Shown: positions 2,186 to 55,830 of the stretch, one piece after another
How the letters are laid out: every line of letters starts with the position of its first letter
Position numbering within the stretch: position 1 is the first letter of the stretch
The notes under the pieces: model-generated
Database searches by the model: none
What the model saw: only the letters and a program-made list of their open reading frames with translations
Told to the model about the DNA's origin: nothing
Translations under genes and position numbers: made by a program
DNA from: a virus
Taxonomy: Duplodnaviria; Caudoviricetes
DNA: 55,830 bases
Direction: 5' to 3' (one strand)
IMG/VR virus record: IMGVR_UViG_3300049811_000327
Span: 1-55,830 of that record

Positions 2186-2195
2186 GATTCAGCAC

Positions 2196-6739: not shown

Positions 6740-6745
6740 GGTCGG

Positions 6746-7159
6746 TTAACTGTCTTTGCGACTCTCAACCCATGTGCCGTTGCACTGCCAGAAGTTGGTC
6801 CTAACAGTTGGCCAAGTGAACTTCTCAAGGTCACCAGGACCAATGAAGTAGGTAGCTCCAAAGACACGATCTGTAACTGATTGGGCCACCAGAACTGCTA
6901 CGATATCTTGGGAAGTGGGGGTGTCTGAGGCGAACCATCCGCCTGCGATCCCTGCCTTCCGACGGTTTACGGCTACTTGAGCAGCCGCTATCTTAGCCTC
7001 AAACGGGCAGCCTCTTGTTTCTCCTGCCACGATCTGCATCAACGCCAACTGTTCTTCATTTGGCATACCAGATTGTGGAAGATAGAAGGATGCCGGACCA
7101 GCTACAAAGGCCAAAATGAGTGTGATTTGAACGAGTTTCGAAATGATTCTCAACTTCAT
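6746..7159 (-). CDS. SleB/Hydrolase_2-like cell-wall hydrolase with N-terminal hydrophobic segment
   Basis: IVAGETRGCPFEAKIAAAQVAVNR resembles the SleB catalytic-Glu helix, GATYF is also present; short for the family. Confidence 0.6.
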   Translation of the reverse strand: MKLRIISKLVQITLILAFVAGPASFYLPQSGMPNEEQLALMQIVAGETRGCPFEAKIAAAQVAVNRRKAGIAGGWFASDTPTSQDIVAVLVAQSVTDRVFGATYFIGPGDLEKFTWPTVRTNFWQCNGTWVESRKDS

Positions 7160-7304: not shown

Positions 7305-7319
7305 CTGCCAGAACCATTG

Positions 7320-7420: not shown

Positions 7421-7426
7421 AGTGAC

Positions 7427-8790: not shown

Positions 8791-8826
8791 CGGAGTGTCT
8801 TTCTGCCTCAAAGAGGCACTTGTGTT

Positions 8827-9458: not shown

Positions 9459-9484
9459 GGGTTAGGGTTCAAGGGACCCATGGG

Positions 9485-13194: not shown

Positions 13195-13496
13195 TCAACG
13201 CCTCTCAGGAACGGCAGGTCGACAGGGATTGTCAGCAGGCCGAGGCGCTCAATCTGTTTGGCAACCACGGTAGCGCCCTGAGGGTCTGGCCCGGATTGAA
13301 TCCGGTCGAGCTCAACCGAGGCACCGATCATTACATCGATGGCTCGGTTACGACGACGAACCAGGCCGGCTACCACAGTGTTCAGATTTGCTGGGCCAAG
13401 GATACGGCGACGCTCTTCAGCATTACGTCGCTGCCAGGTAGCCTTAGCGGCGGTAGACTTGGCAGAGGTTGAGGGTTGGGAGGTTGATTGATCCAT
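13191..13496 (-). CDS. Hypothetical protein, first gene of the leftward operon
   Basis: 101 aa; stop overlaps the next start. Confidence 0.55.
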   Translation of the reverse strand: MDQSTSQPSTSAKSTAAKATWQRRNAEERRRILGPANLNTVVAGLVRRRNRAIDVMIGASVELDRIQSGPDPQGATVVAKQIERLGLLTIPVDLPFLRGVE

Positions 13497-13594
13497 TTGA
13501 CGGTCATCTTTCTTTCTAGTTGGAAGTTAGAGAGAGAAGGGGCCTTCAACCACCATGGAGGAGATTCAACGAGAAGGCCTCTTCCCTTAGGACA

Positions 13595-15186: not shown

Positions 15187-15190
15187 CGGT

Positions 15191-15274
15191 GTGAAGGGGC
15201 CAAGGCGGTGGGGGGCCGAGAGAGTTCGGTCGACACTAGCAGGGGGGAGGCCCTCACCGCCTTGGTCCTTTCAC
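15191..15274 (+). other. Long RNA hairpin (about 26-bp stem)
   Basis: 15191-15217 pairs with 15249-15274, with G.U pairs and one bulge. Confidence 0.65.
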
Positions 15275-15278
15275 TCAA

Positions 15279-15336
15279 CGAACTTTGGAAATTTAACCTT
15301 TCTGATATGTACATTTCGACAAAAGCGTGATATGAT
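15279..15336 (+). promoter_or_regulatory. Early promoter repeat P2
   Basis: TGTACA(15308)-N17-TATGAT(15331) with a slightly diverged upstream box. Confidence 0.85.
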
Positions 15337-15378
15337 AGTCTCGTAAGCCAAACTCACTCGAACGAAAGGACCTGAACG

Positions 15379-32621: not shown

Positions 32622-32987
32622 ATGAAAGCGTTTCTGTTACTTGTCGGCGGAGTAGCCGCCATCGTCTTCGTCCTGATGCTTCTGCTGATCTCGAGTGATG
32701 CGATTGATACCGCAACGAGTGAAGCGGTCGAGGACGTTATCAGTCAGCTTGGTGATGAGACATCCGCATCGGCCAAACAGCTCTCGGTCAACATCTGCAC
32801 CGGTCTGTGCATCGGCTCTGGCAATAGCAAGCAAGACAGCGCGGCAACAACCACCACAATGAAGCAGGAGAAAGAGGTGGAGGTGGAACCGCCGAGCACG
32901 AGCTCAATGTTACTCTTTGGCCTCCTCTTCACAGTCGTCGTTGGGCTAGCGGTGGTCTTCGCGACGTTCATCTTTGGTAGTGAATAA
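32622..32987 (+). CDS. Membrane protein with N- and C-terminal TM helices
   Basis: Hydrophobic termini around a polar loop with CTGLC. Confidence 0.65.
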   Translation: MKAFLLLVGGVAAIVFVLMLLLISSDAIDTATSEAVEDVISQLGDETSASAKQLSVNICTGLCIGSGNSKQDSAATTTTMKQEKEVEVEPPSTSSMLLFGLLFTVVVGLAVVFATFIFGSE

Positions 32988-33100
32988 ACCTACCCATCAT
33001 CAGTCACCAAGTGTGCTCCCAAGTGTTGTGGCTGTGTGTGTTGTGCACGCTTACGCGGGAAAAACACCGTAAGACACATCGGTAAGTGAAAGGAAATCAC

Positions 33101-33481
33101 GTGAAGCATCTAATTCGCAACCTTCTCCTAGCCTTTTGCCTAATTGTTGGCTTTGTGACTCTTGCGATTGTCATATCAGAAAAGGCAGGAGAAACGGGTG
33201 CGGCAATCGTAGTTGGGGTCATATTCTTGCTAGTACTTTCGATCCCAACGTCCTTGGCGATAGCTCTCATCAACAGGTCTTTGTCGAACAGAAAATACAC
33301 CAGACAGGTGAACAACGACAATCGCCAGATCATAATCTTCGTTCAGAGAGAAAGCGGAGAGTTTGCAAAAGTTGAAGGCGAAGAGGCCAAAAGATTGCTC
33401 TCTGGGCTATCTCCTCAACACACTTCAGTCATCGTTTCCAAGTCTGGAAACACGCCCACCCATATTCAAGAAAGGCTCTAA
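33101..33481 (+). CDS. Membrane protein (2 predicted TM helices)
   Basis: Two hydrophobic helices; AAAGGA RBS before GTG 33101. Confidence 0.6.
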   Translation: MKHLIRNLLLAFCLIVGFVTLAIVISEKAGETGAAIVVGVIFLLVLSIPTSLAIALINRSLSNRKYTRQVNNDNRQIIIFVQRESGEFAKVEGEEAKRLLSGLSPQHTSVIVSKSGNTPTHIQERL

Positions 33482-35061: not shown

Positions 35062-35138
35062 CGAGTTTGCCAGCAAGGGGAGGATGAGTGCAAGTGACGG
35101 CTCATCCTCCTCTCCATGTTTTCCAAAGGAACTACGAA

Positions 35139-36023
35139 ATGACAACCATCGCAATCCCCAATGATGACATCTTCAGTCGCGGGCCCAAGGCAAGCGTAAA
35201 GACTGAGCGTGACCCGATCGTTGAAGCTATCTTCTCCGGCATGACGTCCACCAACACTCTCCGCCGCAAGCGCATGTACGGAGCGGCTGCGGGCAAGTGC
35301 GCTCGTCACTCATACCTGATGACCAAGTCTGATGGGATCGACACGTTCGGTCCATCCGGGATGATGTACACGGCGATCGGAACGGCGGTCCACAACGCCA
35401 TCTCGACAGCGCTCTTCAACGCCGGTCTCCTGATGTTCAAGGAGTATCGCCTCTCACCGCCGACGTGGCTCGCACTGAGTGGGTACGTCGACGACATCAT
35501 CGCTCTCGACGGCCAGCCTGCCATCCTCGAGATCAAGACGACCGGCAACGTTTCGAAAGCAACGATCGACTTCGAACATGCAATGCAGGCGACCACCTAT
35601 GCGCTCATCACCGGCATAGATCGTGCCTTCGTCCTCTATGTCGACCGCAACGTCGGCATGCCGCTCCCCAAGATGCGCTCCCTCCAGGTCGATACGAGTC
35701 CGGAGGCGCTTCGGGCAGTGGCCACTCAGTTGGCGAACGGGCAAGTTGGCATGAATCGCGATCGCCTGCCGAGTATCCCTCTGAACCTTCGCCCGAGCCT
35801 CTGCAGGTACTGCCCGTTTCACTCCAACTGTTGGGATGATGAACCATTCACATTCCCCGTTGGTGAAGCCCTGGGAGGCCCGGACGACCTTCACGACGTT
35901 GAGTGGATGGTCGCAGACCTGATTGACCCGAAGCAACGAGCGTGGCGCCTTGAGCGAACCATCGAGTTCATCGCCAAGTTCGGCGAGAAGCGTCCGATCC
36001 CCGAACTGATCGAATCAGTCTAG
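35139..36023 (+). CDS. Cas4-like PD-(D/E)xK exonuclease with Fe-S cysteines
   Basis: C...GTAVH, GYVD, EIKT, QATTY, CRYCPFHSNC. Confidence 0.85.
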   Translation: MTTIAIPNDDIFSRGPKASVKTERDPIVEAIFSGMTSTNTLRRKRMYGAAAGKCARHSYLMTKSDGIDTFGPSGMMYTAIGTAVHNAISTALFNAGLLMFKEYRLSPPTWLALSGYVDDIIALDGQPAILEIKTTGNVSKATIDFEHAMQATTYALITGIDRAFVLYVDRNVGMPLPKMRSLQVDTSPEALRAVATQLANGQVGMNRDRLPSIPLNLRPSLCRYCPFHSNCWDDEPFTFPVGEALGGPDDLHDVEWMVADLIDPKQRAWRLERTIEFIAKFGEKRPIPELIESV

Positions 36024-41429: not shown

Positions 41430-41520
41430 AAACCTCCCAGTCACTCGCCCGTTTCGAAGATGTGTATCCTATCATCTCGTACGGTTCCAAGTGACTGAGA
41501 GGCCCTGGTAGGCCCAGGTC
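41430..41520. repeat. Dispersed palindromic element, copy i (core GATGTGTATCCTATCATC at 41459-41476)
   Basis: CTCCCAGTCACT and AGTGACTGAGAG inverted arms; lies where the two transcription directions converge. Confidence 0.8.
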
Positions 41521-41531
41521 TAGGTCTCTGC

Positions 41532-41921
41532 TTACTCGATCAGTTGCTCATAAAGTTCGCTGGTGTTCACCTTGCTCGTCTTTGCCTCAGGCGCATCGCC
41601 ATCTTCACACACGGCGTGCGTACCCAAACCGGGCTCGAACACGGTAGTGATGGGCATGGGGCAAACGTCCTTCCAAAGCCAAGTGTCTGTACCCTGAAGA
41701 ACGCAGAACACAAGGACTGGAGGGTAGCCTGGCAGCGGGACACTCTTGAGGTCGGCGCCAAGAGGGCAGAGCTGCTTCCAGATGACCCACGAGCTCTCCT
41801 GGGCCTCGGCACGTGGAGAGGTGATTGGCTCTTCATCCGTTTGGGCAGAGGCACCCAGGAACGGCATGAGCAGCGCCAAGAGGATGACGATCGTCAGCAT
41901 GAAGCGGATCTTGGTTCGCAT
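41532..41921 (-). CDS. Secreted protein with two W-K-xx-CP repeats
   Basis: Signal-peptide-like N-terminus (ASA); WKQLCP and WKDVCP; AAAGGA RBS. Confidence 0.6.
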   Translation of the reverse strand: MRTKIRFMLTIVILLALLMPFLGASAQTDEEPITSPRAEAQESSWVIWKQLCPLGADLKSVPLPGYPPVLVFCVLQGTDTWLWKDVCPMPITTVFEPGLGTHAVCEDGDAPEAKTSKVNTSELYEQLIE

Positions 41922-41939
41922 GATAGGGGATCCTTTGCT

Positions 41940-42296
41940 CTAGATAGACTCAACCAGGAGGGCGTCGGGGAGTGCCTCCTGGACACTAACTTCGTTGTCG
42001 ATGATGGACAGGATGATGTTGACCGCGTAGGCAACGAACTCATCCCTCGTCATCATCATGGAGCCGCCAAAGTAGTCGTACACCCAGCTGGCGATGGGAG
42101 CAATCGTCTCTGGGGTCGCAACACGACCAACGAGACGGACAACCCAAGCGAGGAGAATGTCGATGGTCTCAGCATCCTCTCCATCTTCCGTTGGTCGCAT
42201 CAGCCTGATGAGGACGAACCCAAGCATGATGAGAATCGCGACCAGAAGGGTGACGATGAGCGCCGTATCGAGTGGTGAAATGGACAAATGTTGCAT
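41940..42296 (-). CDS. Membrane protein, holin candidate
   Basis: One long N-terminal TM helix; AAGGAGG RBS; lysis-region position. Confidence 0.45.
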   Translation of the reverse strand: MQHLSISPLDTALIVTLLVAILIMLGFVLIRLMRPTEDGEDAETIDILLAWVVRLVGRVATPETIAPIASWVYDYFGGSMMMTRDEFVAYAVNIILSIIDNEVSVQEALPDALLVESI

Positions 42297-42336
42297 GAAC
42301 AGGTGGCCCTCCTTGGGGCCAAAGGTACAGAGTCAT

Positions 42337-43146
42337 TCAGTTGGGGGTGCGACGGTAGACGTCCACCATTTCGCGAATCGAACTCGTCGAACGAGACATT
42401 GCCTTCTTGAGAGCCTCATCGGGAGTTGACCCTTCCGAGAGTGCTTGCCAAAATGCTTTCGTGAAGAGTGCTGCTCCAGAGTTGTCGATCGGAGCACGCA
42501 TCGCCACAACGAATGGAACAACAGCAAGGAGACGACCAACGCCAGTGGATTCACATCCGGCAATCACCAAAACTTTGACGCCGTCGAGGCGATCCGAGAG
42601 CCAAAGAGCGTCAACAACTCTGTCCGAAAACTTCACCCCAGTCGGATTGGCATGAACTGACAAGTGGAGGTTCTCGATAGGCGCACCAGCTGCTCTCCTG
42701 TCACCCAGAATCGTCTCTAAGGCTTTAGCCGTGACGTCATTTATAACCTCTAACCTTACGTTCGGCAAGCCTCTCAGGAGCATCAGGTCCTCCGTGAGCA
42801 TGTGATCATTTCCGATGGCCAAGACGAGACTGAAGTCATCTTGAGAAGTCTTGACTAACGTCTTGGGATTGGGTCGTTTAGATCGTTCCCTTTGGGTACG
42901 CTCAAGTTCAAGCTCCAACTGGTGAACACGCTCACGAAGCTCAACGATCTCCGCCTGTTTTTCGACAAGCATTGTCTGCAGCAAAGCTTGCTCTGTCTCA
43001 AGCTTCAAGACGCGCTTGGTCAGTGCAACCTCTTTACTTTCGACAATCGGAAGTCGCTGAGCTCGCCAGAGAGCAACGACGACTGAGATCAATGACGCAA
43101 TCAGTGTGATAACGAACAAGTAGGTGATTTGGTTAGATGTTAGCAT
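42337..43146 (-). CDS. Membrane-anchored coiled-coil protein with CHAT (caspase-fold) domain
   Basis: TM helix, coiled coil, then LHLSVHA...VLVIAGCES...VVAM...IDNSGAALFTKAFWQALSEG. Confidence 0.75.
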   Translation of the reverse strand: MLTSNQITYLFVITLIASLISVVVALWRAQRLPIVESKEVALTKRVLKLETEQALLQTMLVEKQAEIVELRERVHQLELELERTQRERSKRPNPKTLVKTSQDDFSLVLAIGNDHMLTEDLMLLRGLPNVRLEVINDVTAKALETILGDRRAAGAPIENLHLSVHANPTGVKFSDRVVDALWLSDRLDGVKVLVIAGCESTGVGRLLAVVPFVVAMRAPIDNSGAALFTKAFWQALSEGSTPDEALKKAMSRSTSSIREMVDVYRRTPN

Positions 43147-43507
43147 CTCCACCCCACTGGATAGCGAAGATCTCTGCGAGCATCACGACGGCAAATGAAG
43201 CATTCACCAATAGTGACGTTGGACTCATTGTCGCTGCAGCAAGAACGACCCACATCGTCATTGACAATGCAGAGACGATTCGGCCGAAGAGAGAAGATCG
43301 CAAAGGCTCTTTCCTCGTCTTGAACAGCATCACACCGAGAATGATCATGATGATGCCATAGACGTGCGGTTCGAAGAAACGCAATGGAGAGACTGATTGC
43401 GCAAAGATTGGAAACACTCGCGGAAGGCCGACCGCAAGTGTGATCCAAGCCGCGAGCTTTCTGACCTGAGGGCCACTTGGTGGAGTGATCGCCGCTTTTA
43501 ATGTCAT
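43133..43507 (-). CDS. Multi-pass membrane protein, holin candidate
   Basis: 124 aa with 3-4 hydrophobic helices. Confidence 0.55.
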   Translation of the reverse strand: MTLKAAITPPSGPQVRKLAAWITLAVGLPRVFPIFAQSVSPLRFFEPHVYGIIMIILGVMLFKTRKEPLRSSLFGRIVSALSMTMWVVLAAATMSPTSLLVNASFAVVMLAEIFAIQWGGDANI

Positions 43508-43812
43508 CGTCGGAACATCCCAAAGAGAATGATTGAGCTTGTTAGGACATTACTCACTGCAACAAGTGCAAGCCCAACGGTATAGATGGTCCAGTGTGCG
43601 ACAGAAGAGTTGTCCCATTGCCAACCAAACCATATTGCAAAGACGATACCTGTGATCCCAAAGCCAATACACACGGGGATGTATTGCCGTGAGACGCGGT
43701 GTGTAGTAACCCACACCATCGATGCAGATGTCATGAAGAACGTGCACCCGATCACGATCACCCACAGCAACTTACGGATGAACTGCAGGTCTAAGAGCGT
43801 TGCCGGTGTCAT
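43504..43812 (-). CDS. Three-TM membrane protein, holin candidate
   Basis: 102 aa; ATGA overlaps on both sides. Confidence 0.55.
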   Translation of the reverse strand: MTPATLLDLQFIRKLLWVIVIGCTFFMTSASMVWVTTHRVSRQYIPVCIGFGITGIVFAIWFGWQWDNSSVAHWTIYTVGLALVAVSNVLTSSIILFGMFRR

Positions 43813-44123
43813 TGTGGGCCGTCGATGACTTGGAGAAAACGCGCGCTGACCCAACCGCTGAAAGTCTTTCGTTCCCAAACAGTGGATGTTCGCGCGGCTT
43901 TCACACTACTCTTCAAGTGGTCATCGGAGTAAGCATACTTTGCGTCGTCTGGTGTCACCCAGCCATCCATCTCAATCTTAACCCAAGCACCAGTGGGGTC
44001 AGCAGTAACGCGAACGATGCTGTGCTTCATGATTGTGATGATGCGCTTGTAGGTCGTTCCCGGACCGTCACGCAAGATAAGGTTCGCAGTCGCTGTCGCT
44101 TGTGAATCGTGGACCAGTTTCAT
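43809..44123 (-). CDS. Stand-alone bacterial SH3 (SH3b) domain protein
   Basis: NLILRDGPGTTY...WVKI...GWVSARFL. Confidence 0.75.
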   Translation of the reverse strand: MKLVHDSQATATANLILRDGPGTTYKRIITIMKHSIVRVTADPTGAWVKIEMDGWVTPDDAKYAYSDDHLKSSVKAARTSTVWERKTFSGWVSARFLQVIDGPQ

Positions 44124-44341
44124 TTCGATGCCTCGACGTTGGGAACAATCTGAATCATAGCAACGATCAGTCCATCAGCGATTTGAGGCGTCGCCTGTAG
44201 CTGACAGTTCTGCGCTTCCAACACAGCTTGGATTCCAGCTCGAACTGCCTCTATCCGACGCTGACGGTCAGCAATGATCAGCCTATTCAACTCGTCTGCC
44301 GTGAGAGGAGTGCTCGTCTGCTTTGCGTTTGATTGTGTCAT
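44120..44341 (-). CDS. Small hypothetical protein
   Basis: 73 aa; coupled overlaps. Confidence 0.6.
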   Translation of the reverse strand: MTQSNAKQTSTPLTADELNRLIIADRQRRIEAVRAGIQAVLEAQNCQLQATPQIADGLIVAMIQIVPNVEASK

Positions 44342-44628
44342 TTTGGCACCGTATTCACAATGCGCATCAGGCGTGTTGCCGCCGTGCCGGAGGTGTATTC
44401 GCCTAACGCTGTATTGACCTCGGCCAGCGCATTTTTGGCCGCTGTCATTTCAGTAACCGTGACGTGTGCAAACTCCGACAACTCGGCGTAGTCGGCATCT
44501 GTCAACGACGCCATGCCTTCGGCGGCATACATTGCAACCGCTACCACCAACCGGTTCTTGATCCGCAGCATATCGAACGCCAGAGATTGCATCTCGCTGG
44601 CTAGGTTCTTCTGCACATTCTGCATCAT
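44338..44628 (-). CDS. Hypothetical protein downstream of the tail fibre
   Basis: 96 aa; AGGAG RBS. Confidence 0.6.
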   Translation of the reverse strand: MMQNVQKNLASEMQSLAFDMLRIKNRLVVAVAMYAAEGMASLTDADYAELSEFAHVTVTEMTAAKNALAEVNTALGEYTSGTAATRLMRIVNTVPK

Positions 44629-44637
44629 GTGTGTCTC

Positions 44638-47600
44638 CTAAGTCAAAAGTCCAACATCGCGCAGGGCTTTTACCACCTGCTTGAGCGTGTATCCGTCGAA
44701 AGTCGAGGCGTCGTTTATCGCCGTGCCGCTGTTGGCCGTAAACGCGGCTGCGGCGCTGCTGGTCGTCGGCCTAGCGATAGCCGCTACGCCGTAGAAGCCC
44801 AGCGCAGCCGCGCCGCTGACAGCGCCAGCCCGTACTACTTCATAAAACGTTCCTGCGTGGCTGCCGTACAATGACAACCTGCCCGTCCGGCTTGCGTGCG
44901 TGGCCGTAGTCCAGGCGGCTTCCAACAGCGCCGCATCCTGAGACGCAGTGCTATCGCTCTCCAACTGGAACAGCACGCCGCTGGCGAAGCCTGCCGCCGC
45001 CGTGCCAGTTGTGTTGTGCTCCACGGTCAGCAGGTTGGCCCGGTCGTTGGTGCATGCGTCCGTTACCTGAACGTGCAGCCGCGTCCCTGGCGTTTGTGTG
45101 CCAATCCCCACTGCATCGGCACTGGCGTCTACGAACAGGACATAGCCAGACGTATCGCCTTCAACACGGAAATCATAGTTGGCTTGCCCGTCGTTAATGA
45201 CCGTTTCAGTCGGGCCAACAAATAGCGCGTTGACCAGGCTCCCGCTTGCCACGGGCTGCACGGTGATGCCCGATGACCGGCTGGCGTGCGTCGCATCGTT
45301 CCACACCACATCCAAAGCTGCCGCTGTCTGGTTCTCATCCGTGCTGCTATGTAACTCAAAAAGCACACGACTACCAAAACCAGCTAATCTAGTACTTGAA
45401 CTGTTATGGCTAATTTTTACTTGCGTAGTAACAGAGCTTGCTGCAGCGTCTGTCATTAATGACTGGAAGACGCCATTGACACGAAGTAGCTGACTAGCTA
45501 CTGTTGCGTTAAACTCGCCGTAGATTAAAGACTTTTTGCGCGCTCCGGCCTCATTGTCTCGCTTATCATTGTCTATGAATAGCTTTGCCGCCGCCGTCTC
45601 GTAGTACCCGGCCTGATAGCCGAGATACACCGCATTGTTTGCATAGGCCGTGCGCCCGGCCTCGTAGCCGATCATCGTGCTACTCGCCATGCTACCGGCT
45701 GCTGTGTTGCTGCCGTAACCAGCCAAATAGCCGATCAGCGTGTTGCCAGCGCCAGACGCTCGACCGCCAGTTGCATAGCCGATAGCCACTGTACCTGACA
45801 CTGCTGCCATCGAGCCGCCCGCCGAACCCCCGATAAACACCCCGTTGCTGCCTGTCGTGCTGTATCCCGCAAGCGCCCCAAGCGCCACATTGCCACTTCC
45901 GGTTTGCAGAGCGTTCAGTGCGCTGCGCCCAATGATAACATTGTCTGTACCAGTTGTTAGCGCCGCCGCACCGGAGTTGGCAATAACCGTGTTGTTGTAC
46001 CCGGTAGTTAGAACCGCGGCCGCCTGCGCACCAATGGCGATGTTACCACCGCTGTTACCGTCTGAGTTACGGCCATCGTACACGCCTAGTGCATTGTACC
46101 CAATGGCGATGTTGTTGGTAGAGAACTTTGCAGCCTGTAACGCAGCATAACCGATGGCCACGTTCTGCACACCGGTTTCATTATTTGCTAACGACAGTCC
46201 GCCAATGGCAACGTTATAGCTCGCACCAGCCACCGCCAGCCGAGACAACGCACTTACGCCGATGGCAACATTGCGTGTCGATGTTACGTTGCTCCGTAGC
46301 GCATCATCACCGATAGCGACGTTGCCAGCAGACGCAACAGACAGGTAACGAAGTGCGTTTTTCCCAAATGCTAAATTGGTCGATAGCGGCCTGACTTCAA
46401 TTTGCGTGACGGCTGAACCATCCTGCAAAGCCAGCGTGCTGGTTACTGGCGTCACAAGCTTGACCGACACGTTATCGATTGATCCGTCAAAATCCGATGA
46501 TGGCGTGAAGACCAGACCGCCCGATGCGCCAGCCGTGATTACGGGTGCAAACGTGTCAGACGAGTTGTAGTTCACACCCGCCGCCGTGCCGTTCAGCGAT
46601 ACGGCCACGGTTCCCGCCGTCCTGGTCTTGATTTGGAACGCAACTGAGTATATTGCGCCGTTGGTCAGAGTAATTGCTTGCGAAAGCGTGGCTGTAGAAC
46701 CTGCCGTGTGCTTGGCGGCCAGTGCTGTACCGTCATGTGCCCAATTTGCGCCGTATGTCCAGCCACTACTGGTTGCGAAGGCTCCATTTGTAACAAGATT
46801 GCTGCCTAGCGCTGTTACGAAACTGTTACCCCTAAAGATGGCTTGTTCATTCGTTGTGTCCAACGTAAAGAGTGCTGTTCCAGCCGCATTCAGCATTCTC
46901 AGTGCAGTAGTGCTATCGCTAGCTGTTTTCCACGTCGGTCCAATGATTCCGTTGGTAAAAGTTTGAGCTTGGCTAACAGCACCTTCATCGGCACCAGACG
47001 TCGACAAATACCCACTACTGAAAGTTCGGGCCATTGCCTCCGTACGGTCAGGAGCGTAATTCTTTGCTATGACCCCATCGTTCCGCCACTGACGCCCATA
47101 AACGTTCCCAAACGTTTCCCCACCGCTTCCAACCTCAAGGTCCCAGTATGTTTGGCAGTTTTCGCCGCTTGGCACAAAGCGCGCCGTTACAGAGTTGATT
47201 GTCACTGCGTGACTTGACCAACCAAGCGCGGCAGCTGTAACCTCAACGGAGCAGCCAGGCTCCCAAATTGAATCGGTTGGGTCTACACCAGCGTGTCGAG
47301 TTGTCAGTGTTGCTCGTGTTGTTTCGGCCAGTGATGCAAGGTAAGCAAGGCCGAGTGCCTCTGCTTGGCTGACATCACTGACTGAATTGTCCCTCAGTAC
47401 CGGTGCCCAAATCTCACCTATCGCTGCAACACTCACAGCATCCTGGATGATCTCGTCAATGCGGATGCTATATCGATAGATGATTTCCAAGTTCTTTCCA
47501 AGTGGCGGTGGAGTATCGAAATAGAACCTGCGAGTGTCATAGTGGACGAGGCAATCAAACAATGATGGGTCGTCAACATACATGATCCCAACGGATTGGG

Positions 47601-48435
47601 GCATGCCTCCAACTGAAACGCTCACGATTTCATCTGGAGAATACGGTGTTTGAAAGACGGTCGTGGAGTTATTTCCAGCCCAAGTTTCTGTCTGAAGTGT
47701 ACTTAGAGTCGATCCGCCAATAACGCGAACCGAGTTACGCAGACCCGTCGCATCGACATCAATCGAGGGCTTTATCGACATGGGAAGAGCTTGATCGTCG
47801 ATAGCCCAATCACCTTCGACATCTGTCAAGTAATAGGCGTACGGAGTCGTTCCAAGACTCTCGAGGCCGTACCAAACTTCACCAACTGCGTCAACTTTGA
47901 ATTGACGTCCAGATCGCTCTGCGAGCTTACTCAATGCACCGCGCAGAGACTCTCCCTCAAAACCAATATAGTCGACTTGCACTTGCCCCGTAGAGACAAT
48001 CTTCGAAGCGTTATACATGGCCGGGGCATACGTTTGAAGAAGGTCGCTTACGATATCCCCGTCAGAAATGATAGCCTCGAGGTCACCGCCACCATAGACG
48101 CGATCAATCGGTTGGTTCGTTAGAAGTTTAACTGCTGAAGACTGGCAATCGACAATAACGAAGCGATTGGAGCCAGCAGATTCACTCAATGGTTCGAATT
48201 GGGTACGAGAAACGAAACCTGACCAGATAGTCTTTGTCTCAGGGGCGGGGTCAATCACCTGAATCGTAACACTCGACCAAGGTGAAATTGCAGGCAATGT
48301 TCCGAGATCGATGAACGTTAGAGACGCTCGACCGATCTCCCCACCCATCGGTAGTTGAGCCGTCTGTTCACGATTGGCAAGGTGAGCCGTTAGGTCAACT
48401 CCACCAATGATTACCTTTACCGTTCGCCACTCCAT
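44638..48435 (-). CDS. Tail tip/hub protein fused to fibre (receptor-binding) domains
   Basis: 1265 aa directly after the tape measure gene; hub-like N-terminal 440 aa, many N-x-A-I-G repeats, duplicated C-terminal domain. Confidence 0.75.
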   Translation of the reverse strand: MEWRTVKVIIGGVDLTAHLANREQTAQLPMGGEIGRASLTFIDLGTLPAISPWSSVTIQVIDPAPETKTIWSGFVSRTQFEPLSESAGSNRFVIVDCQSSAVKLLTNQPIDRVYGGGDLEAIISDGDIVSDLLQTYAPAMYNASKIVSTGQVQVDYIGFEGESLRGALSKLAERSGRQFKVDAVGEVWYGLESLGTTPYAYYLTDVEGDWAIDDQALPMSIKPSIDVDATGLRNSVRVIGGSTLSTLQTETWAGNNSTTVFQTPYSPDEIVSVSVGGMPQSVGIMYVDDPSLFDCLVHYDTRRFYFDTPPPLGKNLEIIYRYSIRIDEIIQDAVSVAAIGEIWAPVLRDNSVSDVSQAEALGLAYLASLAETTRATLTTRHAGVDPTDSIWEPGCSVEVTAAALGWSSHAVTINSVTARFVPSGENCQTYWDLEVGSGGETFGNVYGRQWRNDGVIAKNYAPDRTEAMARTFSSGYLSTSGADEGAVSQAQTFTNGIIGPTWKTASDSTTALRMLNAAGTALFTLDTTNEQAIFRGNSFVTALGSNLVTNGAFATSSGWTYGANWAHDGTALAAKHTAGSTATLSQAITLTNGAIYSVAFQIKTRTAGTVAVSLNGTAAGVNYNSSDTFAPVITAGASGGLVFTPSSDFDGSIDNVSVKLVTPVTSTLALQDGSAVTQIEVRPLSTNLAFGKNALRYLSVASAGNVAIGDDALRSNVTSTRNVAIGVSALSRLAVAGASYNVAIGGLSLANNETGVQNVAIGYAALQAAKFSTNNIAIGYNALGVYDGRNSDGNSGGNIAIGAQAAAVLTTGYNNTVIANSGAAALTTGTDNVIIGRSALNALQTGSGNVALGALAGYSTTGSNGVFIGGSAGGSMAAVSGTVAIGYATGGRASGAGNTLIGYLAGYGSNTAAGSMASSTMIGYEAGRTAYANNAVYLGYQAGYYETAAAKLFIDNDKRDNEAGARKKSLIYGEFNATVASQLLRVNGVFQSLMTDAAASSVTTQVKISHNSSSTRLAGFGSRVLFELHSSTDENQTAAALDVVWNDATHASRSSGITVQPVASGSLVNALFVGPTETVINDGQANYDFRVEGDTSGYVLFVDASADAVGIGTQTPGTRLHVQVTDACTNDRANLLTVEHNTTGTAAAGFASGVLFQLESDSTASQDAALLEAAWTTATHASRTGRLSLYGSHAGTFYEVVRAGAVSGAAALGFYGVAAIARPTTSSAAAAFTANSGTAINDASTFDGYTLKQVVKALRDVGLLT

Positions 48436-48450: not shown

Positions 48451-51400
48451 TCAGTTCGCCAAGACATACATGCCTTGACGACGCAGCTCCTGCACCATTG
48501 ACTTTGTGATCCGACTCTCTTCCGCAGGGGTCATCCCAGCTTGCCAAGCACCCTCAAACTGGACAGTGAGATATGCTCTCCGGGGTGTCGTTTCGAAGAG
48601 GATGTTAGACCCATTAACTTCCATGTCCAAAGCGTCCTGGACCATTCCTGGCAGCCCGTAGAGGTCCTCCAGGCCCTTCTTCAGACCCAAGACGAAGTAC
48701 TCCCCAATCCTTTCGGCGACACGACTCGGGGAATGAATCCCCCATGCGGCCATGAGCACATCTCTCATTTGGTTTGCCAAGCTAAGCATCGCATCGGTAA
48801 TTGCATTAATGCTGTTAACATTCTGCATTCCACGCAACATTCCACTCATAAACATGCCGGCGATGTAATCGCCTCGATCCCACATGAGACTTCCAAGATT
48901 GAGGAAGACACCGAGAATTTGGTTCTGCATGTTAACGCCGAAACTTACAACGGCTTGCTCGACGAACTGCAGTATGCTCGCAATCTGATTGCCCAAGTTA
49001 ATCATCATTGAGCCAACTTGCGTCAGAACAACTCCGAACGTCCCAATTACTCCGATAAAGAGGGCCGAAATGGCGTTCAAAAACGCAAGCAGCTCATCTG
49101 CCGTTGGGAGATTTGCTTGATCGAGGTCCATCAGTAGTTCGAGAGCCGATCTTAGGGTGTTCACAATCGCCTGCATCTGAGCTGCGAATGCATCGGTTAA
49201 CAGCGTAGCCTGAGGGCTCAGAACATTGAGAACCCACGTCTCCCAACTCTGAAGCATACGAATCAGATTTGTGTTGAACCGTTGCAAACCAAGATCAAAT
49301 TGACTTCCTGTAACGGTGTAGTTGGCGATCCCTTGCATTACAGAAAGAGCGGCGCCAATCGCGGAAAAGACAGATTGAGCAGTTGCCCCGAAGGCGGTCA
49401 GAAATGCTAGACTCGTAGTCGTGAAGTTGGTTGTGGCCCAGTCACGAAGTCGAATCATCACCTGCTCAACATCTTCCATGAAGCGATTGATATTATTTGT
49501 CGTCGGTCCAACATAGTAAGTTAGATCTTGAAGTACTCCTACAGCGTTACCCAGCCCTTGAAAAACCACTCCTGTAACGCGACCAACTTCCTCAACAACC
49601 TCGACGGCAACCCCCATAAAATTGGCTCGTGCCCAAGTTGCGAAAGAGTTGAAAAGGGCCTGGTAATCGGTCGTGAAGGCTGTGATGGCAGCGGCTCCAG
49701 GTGAGACATAGTCGACCAAACCGGCAAGAACACCAATGGCAGACTCCATCGCTTGCATTGCGCTAGAGAACGCCGCCATCATCTCCTCGGGGACATCCAT
49801 GATGAGCCATGGACCAGATCGACTCTGCATTACCCAAGTTGCAAAATTCGTGAGCAGAAGTCCCATGTCGGCGATGAAGACGTTAATTGCAGCTTCACCA
49901 GGAGATACATACTCAACGAGCGCATCAAGCACACCGATGGAAATTTCGAGGGACGATAGGGCCTCTTGGAAGGTAGTCATCAGCTCTGCTGGGATACTCT
50001 TAAAGATTGATATTGCAGGACTGGTTGATATCCAGTTTGCGAAATCAGTCATCAACATCCCAAGATCATTCGTAAACCTCTCAATCGCAAAAGCTGCTGG
50101 TGAGACGTATTCTACAAGGCCTCCCAGGACACCCAGGGCCTCACCCATGGCACCTGTCAAGCCAATGATGAGTGCAGCTACATCGTCTTCGATGTCGACC
50201 ACCAGGGGCCCGATCACGAAGGCGATCCAACGGCCCATCCTCTCAAAGAGGAACTGGAAATCCCACATGAAGCGATTCATATCGTCAATAGCAGGACCAA
50301 CGTAACCAACCAGTGAGCCAAGAAAGGCAACTCCATCCTTGAGTCCGGCCACTATCCTTCCTGCCGCCTCAGCGAACTTGATTGCGTCATCGAAGGCCTT
50401 CCACTGCATTTGGGAGGCCATCGTCTGAAGACGTGCCACGAAGCGTCTGATCGCAAGGAAAAAGGCGTCGGTGTTGTCTATCTCGGGGGCCACATAATTC
50501 ATTGCGGTAGTCGCCCCCTCAAGAGCATCCTTCATTTGAGAACCAACTCGGCCAGCTACCTCCGCGAATTTGATTGCATCGTCGAAAACCTTCCATTGCA
50601 TCTGAGAGGCCATCGTTTGGAGGCGCGCGACGAAACGGCGAATTGCCAAGATGAAGGCATCCGTGTTGTCAGTTTTCGGCGGACTAAAGCTCATAGCCGC
50701 CGCCAGGGCCTCGAGGGCCGACTTCATCTGAGAACCAATTCGACCAGCGGCCTCTGCGAACTTGATCGCATCGTCAAAGGTCTTCCACTGCATTTGGGAA
50801 GCCATCGTCTGAAGGCGTGCAACGAAACTACGGAGTGTCGAGATAAAGGCATCCGTATTATCGGTCTTCGGAACATTGAAGCTTATGGCTGCTGCCAAGG
50901 CCTCGAGAGCGGCCTTCATCTGTGAACCAATTTGACCAGCCGCTTCAGCGAACTTGATGGCGTCATCAAAGACTTTCAGTTCCATCTGAGAGGCCATCGT
51001 TTGAAGGCTAGCAACGAAATAACGAATTGCCTCAACAAAGGCGTCCGTGTTATCAGTCTGCGGAGCATTGAAGCTTATGGCCACTGCCAAGGCTTCAAGG
51101 GCGGCCTTCATCTGTGAACCAATTCGACCAGCTGCTTCGGCGAACTTGATGGCGTCATCAAAGACTTTCAGTTCCATCTGAGAGGCCATCGTCTGAAGAC
51201 TAGCAACAAAATAACGAATTGCCTCAACAAAGGCATCCGTGTTATCAGTCTTCGGTGGGGTGAAATTCATTGCCGCGGTCAGACCATCCGCAACTCCATC
51301 AAGAATAGGGAGAATGCCGCCAGCAGCTTGAGAGAAGATAATTGCGGCTGGCAATCCAGAGAGATTAATCTCTGCCGCTGCAGCCACGATCCCATTAACC

Positions 51401-54321
51401 AACTTCGGAACAAACTGCTTGAGTTGTGCCACAAACTTCTCGATGTTAGCGTCAAGAACATCCAGCTCAGAGATCTTGGAGAAGGCATCAATGATCTGGT
51501 CAAGGTTGCTGAAGATTTGGGCCAGCGGGTCAAGAACAGCTTTAGCGCTCCAAATAGGGCTATTCTCGACGGCGAAGTACTCTGCCAATCGTTGCAGCTG
51601 AATAACTACCAGCTTGATATCGGCAATAAGCTTGGTGAGCTTAGATGGAAGGTCCTGAACGCCACCATAGAGAGCGAGAGTTTGCATTGCATCCATCACT
51701 CGGGTCATCGCATCGGCAATGATTCCGAGTGTCTGAACTGCTTTGCGGACAGGCCCGGTAAAGGCTTTGTTGATCGCCTCTGTGATTTCGCTGGTCATAT
51801 CGAGGACGCCCAGGATGAAGCCTTCAATCGTATTCTGGCCAATTTCCCTGAACACCCGAGATGGTGAATGCATGCCGAGCAAGTTTTTGGCTGCCTCAAT
51901 CGCACTCTGAACAACTCCACTGGCAGCATCAATCAAGGCTCCAGCCATTGACTTGACTCCGTTGATCAAACCTTGAATGATCTGGGCGCCAAGAGCTGCC
52001 AAATCTATCCCACTGAGAAATGCCTTGACAGCCTCAAACTTCTCGACAAACCACTCATAGATTGTTACAAGCGTAACACCAATAGCCGTTGTAAGGGCCG
52101 TTGTTGCTGCATTAACGATCTCCTTGATGTTCTCCCAAAGGCGCTCCACGGTGTCTTTGATAATCTCCCATGCACCTTCCCAGTCACCCTTGAGAATAGC
52201 CATCGCAGTGTTGACGATCCCCTCAATCAAAGTCAATGCACCATCGATGATGTTTTTGATGATCGTCCAAGCGGACGACAAGATGGTTTGGATCTCAGCG
52301 CCGTGATCATTAATGAATTGAGCTATTCCCTGAAAGACTGGAACGATCGTCGCGTTAAGAATTTCCATGACAGTAGCGATGATCGCCGAGATCCTGACCC
52401 ATGCATCCCCAAGAGTTGCCTTGATGTCTTCCCCATGCGCATCAAGAAACGTCTTCACAACACCCAGGACACCCTGGATGATATCCCCAATCGCAGTCAA
52501 TGCACCATTCACAAGAGTTGTTAGCGAGTCCCAGGCAGCTTGCAGGTTACCCTGGATAGCGCCCACGTTCTCTTGCACTGAAGCAATCAGGATCCCAAAG
52601 ATCTGTGTCACAATTTCTGCAACCAGGGGCAAAACCGTTGAAGCGATTTCGGTAATTTGTGTAAAAGTTGATGCCAACAGAGCAACGAAATTACTGAACG
52701 ACTCACCCAAAATTGTGGTCAAACCGCTCATGTTCAAGAGTCCATCGGCAATAGGGCTAAACACTCCAGTTAGGCTTGTCCCATACGCAATGAACTCTGT
52801 AACAGCATCAACTACGTCCAACAGCGCCATTCCAAAGTCTTTCAACGGGCCGACGGGGAGGTTCTCGTCAAGGACGTCCCACCCTTCATATCCAGCGATT
52901 ACGTCACTAATGGCTTGGATGAAGATGCCAATCGTGTCAATAGCTGGCTGCAGGGCATCTCGAATCCCGCCGAAGTTGGTGGCGAAAGCAACTCCGAGCG
53001 CAACAACTCCAGCAATAATTAGCCCAATCGGTGAGAGTAGCACCCCCAATCCTGTGGCCAAGGCTCCAACCATCAACAAGACTGGTCCGGCCGCCACTGC
53101 CAAAGCAGCGAAAATGATGCCCATATTGACGATCTGGGGATCAAGTGTCATTACTCCACTAAGCAGGTCACTGAGCTTCCTAGCCATCGGTGTCAGGACG
53201 TTCTCGAGAAATGGAGTTAGCGCTTTGATCTGGATACTCTCTACGACGCCGCCCAACGTTTCAAGTGCAGCCTTCCACCCCTTCGTTCGTGCAGCTGCGG
53301 TCTCTTGCACTCCAGCAGCGCCTTCGATACTGGCCCCCATAGCGGCCCACCCCTCTTCTCCCTCAGCTAGCAGGGTATTCATCGCATTCAGGCCATAGGT
53401 GCCAGCCAACGTCTGAACGATCTGGTTGCGCTGCTCCATCGTCATGCCGGCCATTGCGTCTTCAAGCTCGCTCATGATCGTTGGTAGCGCCTTCATCGTT
53501 CCAGTCGCATCATACATCGACAGGCCGAGGGCTTGCCACGTTCCCACCACATCCGAGGTATCACGCTGCATGTTCAACAACATCGACTTGAGCTGTGTCC
53601 CAGCCTCTGCCCCTTCGATTCCGCGCCCAGCCATTAGCGACAGGGCCTGGGTCACAGTGTCGAGCCCGATCCCCATTGAGTTCGCGACCGGGCCCACGTT
53701 TCTCAAGCTTTCAGCCAGCCCACCAACGCTAGCAACTCCTGCATCTGCTGTTCGAACCAATATGTCTGCAATCGATCCTGCCTCACCAGCAGATAGCCCA
53801 AAGGTGTTCATCGCAACTGAAACTACGTCAGTTGCTTGTGCTAGGTTCAGTTCGCTCGACGCCGCCAGGTCGATTGCAGATCGCAGTGCTCCACTCAACG
53901 AAGCTGTCCCCTCGAGATAACCTTGCATGTCCCCGAAGATCTGGTTTGTTGTCATACCGGCCTTATACATGGCCGTCATTGCATCACCAGCTTCGCTTGC
54001 TGTAATTCCCACCAATTGTGTGTCTGCGCCGACGGCCAACGCTGCAGCACTCAAGTCATCAAAGCTTGTTTGAGAGCTCTTGGCCGCCACAGACAGGATG
54101 TTCATGGCCTGCTCAAATTCCCCAGCAGTATTCATCGCTTGAACACCCATGATCGCTATTGGGGCAGTCGCCATTGACATCATCCCCCCCGCTTTCATCA
54201 CGGTACTGCCCATGTTTTGCAGCGACGACGACAAGCTACCCAATTGCCTTTGAGCATCTTGAACATCCGCACCAACCTTTACCATCAACTGTGCCGCTGT
54301 GTTCGTGCCACTGCCAAACAT
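48451..54321 (-). CDS. Tape measure protein
   Basis: 1956 aa; TP901-type core (GIEGAEAGTQLKSML), W/F-periodic repeats, HSPSRV motifs; follows the chaperone genes. Confidence 0.93.
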   Translation of the reverse strand: MFGSGTNTAAQLMVKVGADVQDAQRQLGSLSSSLQNMGSTVMKAGGMMSMATAPIAIMGVQAMNTAGEFEQAMNILSVAAKSSQTSFDDLSAAALAVGADTQLVGITASEAGDAMTAMYKAGMTTNQIFGDMQGYLEGTASLSGALRSAIDLAASSELNLAQATDVVSVAMNTFGLSAGEAGSIADILVRTADAGVASVGGLAESLRNVGPVANSMGIGLDTVTQALSLMAGRGIEGAEAGTQLKSMLLNMQRDTSDVVGTWQALGLSMYDATGTMKALPTIMSELEDAMAGMTMEQRNQIVQTLAGTYGLNAMNTLLAEGEEGWAAMGASIEGAAGVQETAAARTKGWKAALETLGGVVESIQIKALTPFLENVLTPMARKLSDLLSGVMTLDPQIVNMGIIFAALAVAAGPVLLMVGALATGLGVLLSPIGLIIAGVVALGVAFATNFGGIRDALQPAIDTIGIFIQAISDVIAGYEGWDVLDENLPVGPLKDFGMALLDVVDAVTEFIAYGTSLTGVFSPIADGLLNMSGLTTILGESFSNFVALLASTFTQITEIASTVLPLVAEIVTQIFGILIASVQENVGAIQGNLQAAWDSLTTLVNGALTAIGDIIQGVLGVVKTFLDAHGEDIKATLGDAWVRISAIIATVMEILNATIVPVFQGIAQFINDHGAEIQTILSSAWTIIKNIIDGALTLIEGIVNTAMAILKGDWEGAWEIIKDTVERLWENIKEIVNAATTALTTAIGVTLVTIYEWFVEKFEAVKAFLSGIDLAALGAQIIQGLINGVKSMAGALIDAASGVVQSAIEAAKNLLGMHSPSRVFREIGQNTIEGFILGVLDMTSEITEAINKAFTGPVRKAVQTLGIIADAMTRVMDAMQTLALYGGVQDLPSKLTKLIADIKLVVIQLQRLAEYFAVENSPIWSAKAVLDPLAQIFSNLDQIIDAFSKISELDVLDANIEKFVAQLKQFVPKLVNGIVAAAAEINLSGLPAAIIFSQAAGGILPILDGVADGLTAAMNFTPPKTDNTDAFVEAIRYFVASLQTMASQMELKVFDDAIKFAEAAGRIGSQMKAALEALAVAISFNAPQTDNTDAFVEAIRYFVASLQTMASQMELKVFDDAIKFAEAAGQIGSQMKAALEALAAAISFNVPKTDNTDAFISTLRSFVARLQTMASQMQWKTFDDAIKFAEAAGRIGSQMKSALEALAAAMSFSPPKTDNTDAFILAIRRFVARLQTMASQMQWKVFDDAIKFAEVAGRVGSQMKDALEGATTAMNYVAPEIDNTDAFFLAIRRFVARLQTMASQMQWKAFDDAIKFAEAAGRIVAGLKDGVAFLGSLVGYVGPAIDDMNRFMWDFQFLFERMGRWIAFVIGPLVVDIEDDVAALIIGLTGAMGEALGVLGGLVEYVSPAAFAIERFTNDLGMLMTDFANWISTSPAISIFKSIPAELMTTFQEALSSLEISIGVLDALVEYVSPGEAAINVFIADMGLLLTNFATWVMQSRSGPWLIMDVPEEMMAAFSSAMQAMESAIGVLAGLVDYVSPGAAAITAFTTDYQALFNSFATWARANFMGVAVEVVEEVGRVTGVVFQGLGNAVGVLQDLTYYVGPTTNNINRFMEDVEQVMIRLRDWATTNFTTTSLAFLTAFGATAQSVFSAIGAALSVMQGIANYTVTGSQFDLGLQRFNTNLIRMLQSWETWVLNVLSPQATLLTDAFAAQMQAIVNTLRSALELLMDLDQANLPTADELLAFLNAISALFIGVIGTFGVVLTQVGSMMINLGNQIASILQFVEQAVVSFGVNMQNQILGVFLNLGSLMWDRGDYIAGMFMSGMLRGMQNVNSINAITDAMLSLANQMRDVLMAAWGIHSPSRVAERIGEYFVLGLKKGLEDLYGLPGMVQDALDMEVNGSNILFETTPRRAYLTVQFEGAWQAGMTPAEESRITKSMVQELRRQGMYVLAN
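50290..51250 (-). repeat. Five tandem 192-bp (64-aa) repeats inside the tape measure gene
   Basis: The DNTDAF-coding segment recurs at 51241, 51049, 50857, 50665 and 50473. Confidence 0.9.
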
Positions 54322-55394: not shown

Positions 55395-55830
55395 TTACCT
55401 CCGATCGTTTACTCTCTGCAAGAAGTCGTCCATCATGGGCCGCCAATACTGATCGACCAGGTTATCCCAGTCGAACTCTTGGTGGATCGCATAACTTGTG
55501 ACCAACCTCTTCTCTGCGAGCTGTGAAGGCGAGAGCGAGGCCCTCTCTTCAGTCAGCTCAAGGATTGCGGCAGCCACCCCTGGCACGTCGGGAACGGCCT
55601 GCCAACTGCTCTGGTAAGTCCAGTCGAGGCGCTGCGGATCAACCGCCACACCCCAGCGGACCAACTCCGGCATCGACGAAAAGTTAGTGACAACCACTGG
55701 GGTCCCACACGCTTGGGCCTCAATGATTGGGATCCCGAAGCCTTCTCCCTTACTTGGGCACAAGAGCATGTCCGCTGCGTTGTAGAACATCGAGAGGTAC
55801 TTGGGAGTGTACTCGCCGATCCACAGCTTG
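55395..55830 (-). CDS. GT4 glycosyltransferase, 3' part (joins 1-945)
   Basis: YNAADMLLCPSKGEGFGIPIIEAQACGTPVV; the frame is open to the window edge. Confidence 0.88.
   Translation of the reverse strand, partial: KLWIGEYTPKYLSMFYNAADMLLCPSKGEGFGIPIIEAQACGTPVVVTNFSSMPELVRWGVAVDPQRLDWTYQSSWQAVPDVPGVAAAILELTEERASLSPSQLAEKRLVTSYAIHQEFDWDNLVDQYWRPMMDDFLQRVNDRR
55659..55830. repeat. Terminal direct repeat, copy 2
   Basis: 171 of 172 bases identical to 1-172. Confidence 0.95.

Follow-up and report, generated by a model that had tools for sequence, protein, structure and literature searches.

A predicted membrane-tethered CHAT-family protease encoded with small membrane proteins in a mobile late-operon module of tailed phages

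We analysed a single virus record of 55,830 bases (IMG/VR record IMGVR_UViG_3300049811_000327, Caudoviricetes; this whole stretch is hereafter called the window), in which the gene at 42337..43146 on the minus strand had been described, from the letters alone, as a membrane-tethered caspase-fold protease in a lysis cassette. By sequence comparison and structure prediction, the product of this gene is a minimal cysteine protease of the CHAT family (caspase fold, clan CD), 269 amino acids (aa) long, with an intact, conserved His165/Cys198 dyad. Its gene is co-transcribed and translationally coupled, within a late operon, with two genes for small membrane proteins, here termed memA and memB, and memA/memB/protease move together between phages as a mobile module of two or three genes. 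As judged by homology searches, the protease family is large and its nearest ESM Atlas clusters are almost wholly viral. What the module does is a more tentative matter, for which we weigh a role in the timing of lysis against several alternatives.

The CHAT assignment is carried by sequence, predicted fold and conservation. The Pfam profile for CHAT (PF12770) matched residues 83-255 with 34.9 bits against a gathering cut-off of 24 (E 1.4e-8), in agreement with the sequence-only reading, which had recognised the histidine of LHLSVHA (H161 and H165) and the cysteine of IAGCES (C198) in a CHAT-like context. The catalytic domain, delimited by VIA-align and Foldseek, spans residues 103-268 (42343..42840, minus strand, as for all features of this gene) and holds the codons of His165 (42652-42654) and Cys198 (42553-42555), the latter being the sole cysteine of the protein. 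Translation was taken from the ATG at 43146; the open reading frame (ORF) itself reaches a GTG at 43152 (42337..43152, 271 aa), and the closest homologues start alike (MLTANQ), as from the ATG.

An AlphaFold2 (AF2) model built on a 101-sequence alignment had a mean predicted local distance difference test score (pLDDT) of 94.1 and was weak only in a linker at residues 90-104. In this model, six strands alternate with helices in the C-terminal 165 residues; H165 stands just after the strand at 159-163 and C198 just after the strand at 192-195, the places that the dyad takes in clan-CD enzymes. Structure prediction, proposed earlier as a check on the dyad geometry, gave a clan-CD/CHAT fold with the dyad residues after the expected strands, and the alpha-beta-alpha fold of caspases and haemoglobinases is present both in the model and in its structural matches over model residues 100-269. 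A Foldseek search of the PDB returned the SAVED-CHAT structure 8tl0 first (E 1.5e-8), followed by caspases-4, -7 and -11, the Craspase protease TPR-CHAT/Csx29, DdvA and legumain. Pairwise alignment with VIA-align likewise placed SAVED-CHAT (8tl0_C) at the top, with a Z-score of 19.8 and a root-mean-square deviation of 2.2 Å over 160 aligned residues; lower scores were obtained for DdvA (8rw5 and 8rot; Z 14.2 and 13.8, 3.0-3.1 Å, 152-154 residues), procaspase-6 and caspase-7 (Z about 13-13.8, about 3.5 Å, about 160-167 residues), Craspase (7y85_D; Z 13.7, 2.7 Å, 148 residues) and separase (Z 12.8, 2.9 Å, 150 residues), and the CHAT domains of Craspase and separase together with caspase-6/7 covered a range of Z 12.5-13.8. 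The family profile also sets the GC(E/S) motif and the helix after it against the NAC motif region of 8tl0.

Ahead of the catalytic domain lie two further predicted elements, both named in the sequence-only reading. The single transmembrane helix was recovered at residues 4-30 (43057..43137), with an AF2 helix over that span and a mean Kyte-Doolittle hydropathy of 2.54 over residues 7-25. A coiled-coil stalk, put at roughly 60 aa, was found as a heptad-bearing helix, its length being 52 aa (residues 38-89, 42880..43035) and not 60: AF2 models it as one continuous helix (pLDDT 87-98), and in one heptad register 67% of the a and d positions are L/I/V/M compared with 33% for the segment overall.

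HMMER, run over all 1.84 billion representatives (clusters at 50% identity), yielded 266 homologous clusters at E<=1e-3, which excludes a chance resemblance, and 180 at E<=1e-10; most members are 245-290 aa long, and 26 longer ones gave only coiled-coil-type or CHAT matches in Pfam. For the analysis of conservation, 101 of the 150 listed best matches were aligned, and longer, fragmentary or shorter ones were left out. At a mean column identity of about 20%, these relatives keep both members of the dyad (H165 in 94 of 101 and C198 in 96), as well as H161 (96), D120 (100), R151 (98) and W233 (99). The downstream A..F...F..AL..G pattern pointed out earlier is conserved too: A225 is kept in 91 and F232 in 97 of the 101 relatives, while F228 and G239 are invariant in a 7-sequence alignment and at least 90% conserved in a 25-sequence alignment. 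From its sequence, the CHAT protease is probably catalytically active.

The predicted orientation of the enzyme bears on every role proposed for it. A clear N-terminal transmembrane segment, starting at about residue 5, is present in 85 of the 101 relatives, and in all 85 the 15 residues after it are richer in lysine and arginine (K/R) than those before it (mean 3.1 vs 0.16); the window protease has no K/R before the segment and WRAQR after it, and the N-terminal tails of the relatives are short and neutral or acidic. By the positive-inside rule, this predicts an external N-terminus, with the coiled coil and the catalytic domain on the cytoplasmic side (N-out/C-in), so that the earlier suggestion of a cytoplasm-facing protease extends to 85 of 85 relatives. 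Such a placement argues against a spanin-like or envelope-degrading role. Identity with an i-spanin (Rz-like), which needs N-in/C-out, was rejected on the same ground, the K/R bias being opposite in 85/85 relatives, and no o-spanin partner was found in the cluster, which has no lipobox protein and whose small secreted protein (sec129, see below) carries no Cys at the predicted cleavage region.

The three ESM Atlas clusters closest to the protease hold 225, 86 and 75 members of 248-280 aa, and of the members with a recorded taxon 91-100% are viral. When 401 Chloroflexota genomes were sampled, with six candidates scored in each, one genome matched at E<=1e-25, namely the Caldilineaceae metagenome-assembled genome (MAG) that had supplied the search centre. 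This locus (L004, 9821-10564) is the only cellular homologue found; it encodes a transmembrane helix and a CHAT core without the coiled coil, memA or memB, lies among ordinary cellular genes beside a secreted 203-aa protein and acetyltransferase-like genes, and may be a captured phage gene. As the sole hint of a host, this distant homologue suggests that the phage group may infect Chloroflexota. No tblastn match to three family members (P0001, P0012 and P0019) was obtained in 50,697 GenBank phage records, IMG/VR scans with two further protease subclades returned no relative, and neither PHROGs nor NCBIfam holds the family. In the parts of the literature reached by full-text searches, no phage membrane-anchored CHAT protease was found; that material and the family libraries also showed neither the combination of transmembrane helix, coiled coil and CHAT domain, nor its almost exclusively viral distribution, nor the partnership with memA/memB.

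The protease gene sits in a string of small minus-strand genes downstream of the gene for a 1265-aa fibre or spike protein (44638-48435). Reading from that gene, the string begins with p96 (96 aa, 44338-44628) and p73 (73 aa, 44120-44341), which belong to no family in Pfam, PHROGs or NCBIfam; a homologue of p96 stands directly after the tail-fibre gene in the related locus L013 (E 1.7e-13). They are followed by a stand-alone SH3b protein of 104 aa with no signal peptide (43809..44123; Pfam SH3_3, E 4.5e-8), by memA (102 aa, three hydrophobic segments, 43504..43812, within an ORF that extends to a TTG at 43878) and by memB (124 aa, four hydrophobic segments, 43133..43507). ATGA start/stop overlaps join p96, p73, SH3b, memA and memB, and the start of the protease gene overlaps the stop region of memB. 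After the protease gene come two genes with ribosome-binding sites of their own: tm118 (118 aa, 41940..42296), preceded by the Shine-Dalgarno sequence AAGGAGG and encoding one N-terminal transmembrane segment (Kyte-Doolittle 3.19 over residues 12-30) with a predicted acidic cytoplasmic tail (net charge -11), and sec129 (129 aa, 41532..41921), the last gene, whose product has four Cys and an N-terminus like a signal peptide. A convergent terminator-like hairpin closes the string, and the count of promoter-like sequences for the module was 2 compared with a shuffle expectation of 1.9. Among sequencing runs listed for 41500-44700, there were DNA runs with a small share of it and no RNA run. The neighbours listed in the sequence-only reading, three small membrane proteins, an SH3b protein and a secreted protein, were thus all recovered, with three, four and one membrane segments in memA, memB and tm118.

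The memB protein carries two conserved motifs, RPxxGxxVRR in its basic N-terminus and LAAATTSxTS between hydrophobic segments three and four. Searches of Pfam, PHROGs, PADLOC and NCBIfam assigned it to no family, the Atlas clusters closest to it consist of viral hypothetical proteins, and a word-based homologue search returned only memB itself. The sec129 protein is weakly similar to small secreted ORFs that neighbour the protease gene in two related loci (L001, E 0.009; L012, E 0.004).

Related loci were drawn from IMG/VR, metagenomes and one genome. Near-identical loci were collapsed (L007/L008, L013/L014 and L015/L017), those without upstream sequence (L016, L018 and L019) or with a weak match (L021) were set aside, and genes in high-GC loci were called by simple ORF rules, leaving 12 distinct loci, the window included. 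In 8 of the 12 (the window, L002, L007, L009, L010, L012, L013 and L015), the gene immediately before the protease gene is a memB homologue, and a memA-family gene precedes memB in 7 of these 8, the exception being L009; window memA is tied to the L010-type memA through one common match, in L012. Neighbourhood conservation, another check proposed at the outset, is therefore found for memB and memA and not for tm118, which has no homologue in the related loci, nor for genomic position. In the window the module follows the tail fibre gene; in L002 it follows the tape-measure gene and a gene for a 729-aa tail protein; in L012 and L013 it comes after tail genes and genes for large proteins (1109 and 1113 aa) with a signal peptide or lipobox; in L001 the protease gene follows tail genes and a gene for a 794-aa secreted protein and is itself followed directly by an SH3b homologue and then an integrase gene; in L011 it lies upstream of the small and large terminase genes; and in three further phages the module is found between terminase and portal genes or before the portal gene, contrary to the fixed place in a lysis cassette assigned to it earlier. 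At L019, a portal gene adjoins the protease module. At all loci the module is read in the same direction as the structural genes and lies closely packed between them, which speaks for late expression, and its varying position thus amounts to the behaviour of a mobile late-operon cassette.

The large proteins encoded between the tail genes and the module (L001 7510-9894, L012 1332-4661 and L013 1384-4725; 794-1113 aa) all have signal peptides, and the one of L001 shows the lipobox LLAGC. In domain scans one of them showed a CBM9-like domain (E 4.8e-5) and one a weak hint of GH42 (E 0.0016); these proteins may be enzymes that degrade the envelope or a sheath.

The module occupies what the sequence-only reading took to be the usual site of an endolysin. 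Scans of 64 window ORFs with Pfam and PHROG profiles recovered no endolysin family; a candidate of another kind lies elsewhere, at 6746..7159 (minus strand), where a 137-aa protein with an N-terminal hydrophobic helix resembles the lytic transglycosylase SleB. Searched alone with phmmer, its top PDB match was SleB 4f55 (E 0.37); an 11-sequence profile matched 4f55 (E 0.025) and 4fet (E 0.083), and the NCBIfam spore_SleB model gave E 1.9e-4 with 21 bits against a cut-off of 236. In the AF2 model of the candidate (pLDDT 85), Foldseek found only SleB catalytic domains to be significant (E 3.4e-4 to 1e-3, template modelling score by target up to 0.64), the next match standing at E 0.69. All 11 sequences keep E47 of the invariant AGE motif (AGE..GCP), and in 4f55 it is the GES motif that aligns with it. 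Homologues were present in 3 of 5 related, incomplete phage records, about 2.5, 11.7 and 18.6 kb from the protease gene. From these comparisons and the model, 6746-7159 is the probable lytic-transglycosylase endolysin of this phage group, possibly signal-anchored, and with such a candidate at hand the protease is not a substitute for a missing endolysin. Two other matches were discarded: nanobody 7dss, the top PDB profile match of the SleB-like alignment (E 0.0025), was judged spurious, and a match of the tape measure protein to phrog_971, labelled endolysin, was not counted as a lysin, as Pfam shows tape-measure features only.

A wall-binding partner for the candidate is suggested by the phage of L002. 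In its virus record (G403; L032 1190-1830, minus strand), the SleB-like gene is followed by an overlapping, stand-alone SH3b gene, whose product is homologous to the SH3b proteins of the window and of L001 (35% and 42% identity, E 1e-22 and 2e-25). To judge by sequence, this pair looks like a two-gene lysin with a catalytic and a wall-binding part, and since a homologue adjoins the SleB-like gene, the window SH3b protein is probably the wall-binding partner of the lysin. The SleB-like lytic transglycosylase and the stand-alone SH3b protein would then probably degrade the wall together in this phage group, whose host is perhaps in Chloroflexota; we know of no lysis study of Chloroflexota phages.

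For the module itself, the account we lean towards, with rather less than even confidence, is a protease-gated membrane step in lysis timing. Under this account the module would be used as a membrane switch at the end of infection, with memA and memB as holin-like or membrane-permeabilising components. The coiled coil would gather protease domains at the membrane; caspase-fold enzymes are commonly switched on by proximity or oligomerisation, and SAVED-CHAT is activated by filament formation, as its PDB title also suggests. The protease would then cut a partner within a cytoplasmic segment, most obviously memB in its conserved basic N-terminal tail (RPxxGxxVRR), or alternatively another membrane-proximal protein, and the cut would set or lock the timing of membrane permeabilisation. 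In phage lambda, one extra N-terminal positive charge sets the antiholin apart from the holin. Degradation of the wall would be left to the SleB-like enzyme, probably with help from SH3b, and not to the protease. Of the two forms of the original lysis proposal, the protease-triggered or protease-timed one thus leads, unproven, while a protease-executed one is unlikely. If the module does control permeabilisation, proteolysis would join the known means of phage lysis timing, in the form of a compact, transplantable switch.

Four observations tie the module to lysis, none of them decisive. First, the SH3b proteins beside the module in the window and in L001 are homologous to the one encoded after the SleB-like gene of L032. 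Second, the gene after the protease in L011, in a block upstream of the terminase genes, matches PHROG holin family 6918 (E 3.8e-4). Third, the late-gene regions of the window encode no small polytopic membrane proteins besides memA and memB. No membrane protein flanks the SleB-like gene there, and in the L001 phage, which lacks memA and memB, and in L009, which lacks memA, other membrane-protein genes adjoin the SleB-like genes; this comes from four genomes and is an anecdote, not a statistic. Fourth, the surroundings of the module repeatedly include large secreted or lipobox proteins and small secreted proteins with cysteines. In addition, memA and memB share with holins a small size, at least one transmembrane segment and a place in a late operon.

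Several results weigh against a role in lysis timing. Neither memA nor memB matches a holin family in Pfam, PHROGs or NCBIfam, and neither has the long charged C-terminal tail that is typical of holins. Nor do they stand next to the endolysin gene, as holin genes would, the candidate being about 35 kb away. The protease occurs without memB in L001, L011, L020 and the cellular L004, and the first two of these cases count here: a relation of memB to the different, 116-aa membrane ORF upstream of the L011 protease gene was rejected (hhalign, 8.8%), as was one to a membrane ORF of 105 aa that adjoins the SleB-like gene in the L001 phage (0.2%). The membrane genes beside the SleB-like genes in L009 and the L001 phage could be the real holins. 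The module also occupies sites that are odd for lysis genes, namely between the large terminase and portal genes in L009, directly before the portal gene in L007, and before the portal gene with one methyltransferase gene between in L010. The endolysin side of the argument is itself affected, as 6746-7159 has no Pfam match even at E<=10 and its NCBIfam match falls below the cut-off, making the SleB-like assignment marginal by sequence. Finally, the evidence from gene association comes from about a dozen loci out of a 266-cluster family.

In a narrower form of the lysis-timing account, which we consider rather doubtful, the protease would cleave its own small membrane partner and so turn it into a hole-former, making a protease-gated holin and a phage counterpart of the caspase-gasdermin principle. 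If true, this would be a lysis-control mechanism undescribed for any phage. We know of no described holin system with a protease, and none was found in the portions of the literature covered by the searches.

The strongest rival is host takeover or counter-defence, a possibility we take seriously while thinking it improbable overall. Here the tethered enzyme would cut host proteins at the inner face of the membrane, conceivably membrane-bound defence effectors or division or wall-synthesis proteins, and memA/memB would only place or regulate it. The structural relatives SAVED-CHAT, Craspase and DdvA act in conflict or regulatory proteolysis with specific substrates, the nearest Atlas clusters are almost wholly viral, and the position of the module varies as that of an accessory cassette would. 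However, no host target can be named, PADLOC gives just a weak local match to SAVED_CHAT (E 0.003), and takeover predicts neither the tight conservation of two phage-encoded membrane partners nor the repeated SH3b, holin-like and secreted envelope neighbours. Should the protease indeed attack host proteins, it would represent a new class of phage counter-measure.

Less likely still is superinfection exclusion or abortive infection, with memA/memB as sensor or channel and the protease as effector, like small two-gene exclusion systems. CHAT proteases are known as defence effectors, accessory genes often sit at the end of the tail operon and between terminase and portal genes, and an integrase gene adjoins the protease and SH3b genes of L001. 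The module, however, lies inside late operons, is joined by start/stop overlaps and has no promoter of its own, its promoter-like count being that of shuffled sequence; no integrase was recognised in the probably complete window genome, and no defence-family match arose beyond the weak one to SAVED_CHAT.

We give little credence to a non-proteolytic membrane scaffold, serving for example in virion assembly near the portal, in which the dyad would be structural or used for self-processing only. The module adjoins portal genes in L007, L009, L010 and L019, and D120, R151 and W233 are conserved even beyond the dyad (100, 98 and 99 of 101), hinting at a conserved interface; but retention of both dyad residues in 94-96% of relatives at such a low overall identity argues for catalysis, and many members are far from portal genes. 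Execution of lysis by the protease itself in place of an endolysin, to which the lack of a Pfam or PHROG endolysin family in the window might point, is very improbable given a catalytic domain predicted to be cytoplasmic, a SleB-like candidate in the window and in 3 of 5 related records, and a module without a fixed lysis position.

By sequence threshold, fold and dyad, the protease belongs to the CHAT family. It is no member of the SAVED-CHAT, Craspase, DdvA or gasdermin-protease systems, since the partners or domains that define these are missing. SAVED-CHAT, the closest solved fold of the catalytic domain, has the His-Cys clan-CD chemistry predicted for the window protease; 8tl0 is the SAVED-CHAT protease of type III CRISPR or cyclic-oligonucleotide-based anti-phage signalling system (CBASS)-type signalling. 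In contrast, the phage protein has no SAVED sensor, carries a transmembrane helix and a coiled coil instead, is only about 15% identical, and is phage-encoded and paired with small membrane proteins, with no cyclic-nucleotide signalling genes nearby. The PADLOC match to SAVED_CHAT (14.5 bits) covers the CHAT part only, and PHROG and Pfam scans found no CRISPR or CBASS genes in the window. The CHAT catalytic domain is likewise shared with TPR-CHAT/Csx29 of Craspase and with separase (Z 12.5-13.7), both regulated, substrate-specific proteases; here there is no TPR, Cas7-11 partner or Csx30-like substrate gene, and the protein is 269 aa long compared with about 700 to over 2000 aa in those enzymes.

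DdvA, like the window protease, is a membrane-anchored protein with a CHAT domain, from bacteria (Z 13.8-14.2). It is a transmembrane anti-sigma factor of about 1000 aa with repeats and an extracytoplasmic function (ECF) sigma partner, whereas the phage protein has no anti-sigma domain, repeats or ECF sigma, and its predicted orientation and partners differ. To the caspase-gasdermin systems the likeness would be conceptual, if the lysis-timing account is right, with a caspase-fold protease turning a membrane protein into a permeabiliser; the partners here are small integral membrane proteins and not soluble pore-forming precursors, and the genes are phage-borne and not in a host defence island. 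The sequence-only reading had pointed to bacterial CHAT proteases that activate gasdermins and CRISPR substrates. Pfam and PADLOC scans found no gasdermin-like or CRISPR partner of the protease, and searches of Pfam, PHROGs, PADLOC and NCBIfam revealed no gasdermin-family gene among the eight proteins of the cluster. Holin/antiholin and signal-arrest-release (SAR)-endolysin/pinholin systems are resembled in that small late membrane proteins lie beside SH3b and secreted proteins, and the candidate endolysin resembles SAR endolysins in its N-terminal hydrophobic helix. Bacterial CHAT proteases are effectors of anti-phage immunity and regulated switches; here an enzyme of this type is phage-borne, cut to its catalytic core, predicted to be membrane-tied and coupled to small membrane proteins.

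PHROG and Pfam scans of the window show a siphovirus layout. A direct repeat of 172 nt stands at its termini (1-172 and 55659-55830, 171/172 identical) and a single glycosyltransferase gene is split across both ends; the genome is therefore probably complete, although its source lists the record as linear with a completeness of 82%. The minus strand carries terminase, portal, head and connector genes at 1-13,500, and the plus strand genes for replication and nucleotide metabolism at 14,000-41,300. Reading in from the right end on the minus strand are a major tail protein and then a chaperone gene, the 1956-aa tape measure (48451-54321) and the fibre or spike gene. The scans recognised no integrase.

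Three features of the plus-strand genes were noted in passing. In the early region, 14011-17286 encodes a MoxR/CbbQ-type AAA+ ATPase (AAA_5, E 2e-19; CbbQ_C, E 2e-9) followed by a 635-aa VWA-domain protein, a chaperone-like pair. Among the replication genes, 35088-36023 encodes a Cas4-like/PD-(D/E)XK exonuclease (phrog_1706, E 1.2e-23). Two small proteins with two transmembrane segments each are encoded at 32622-33481 in the early/middle region, and the second of them resembles, by eye, a 145-aa two-transmembrane protein of the L001 phage (L031 2429-2866), whose gene adjoins an FtsK-like gene.

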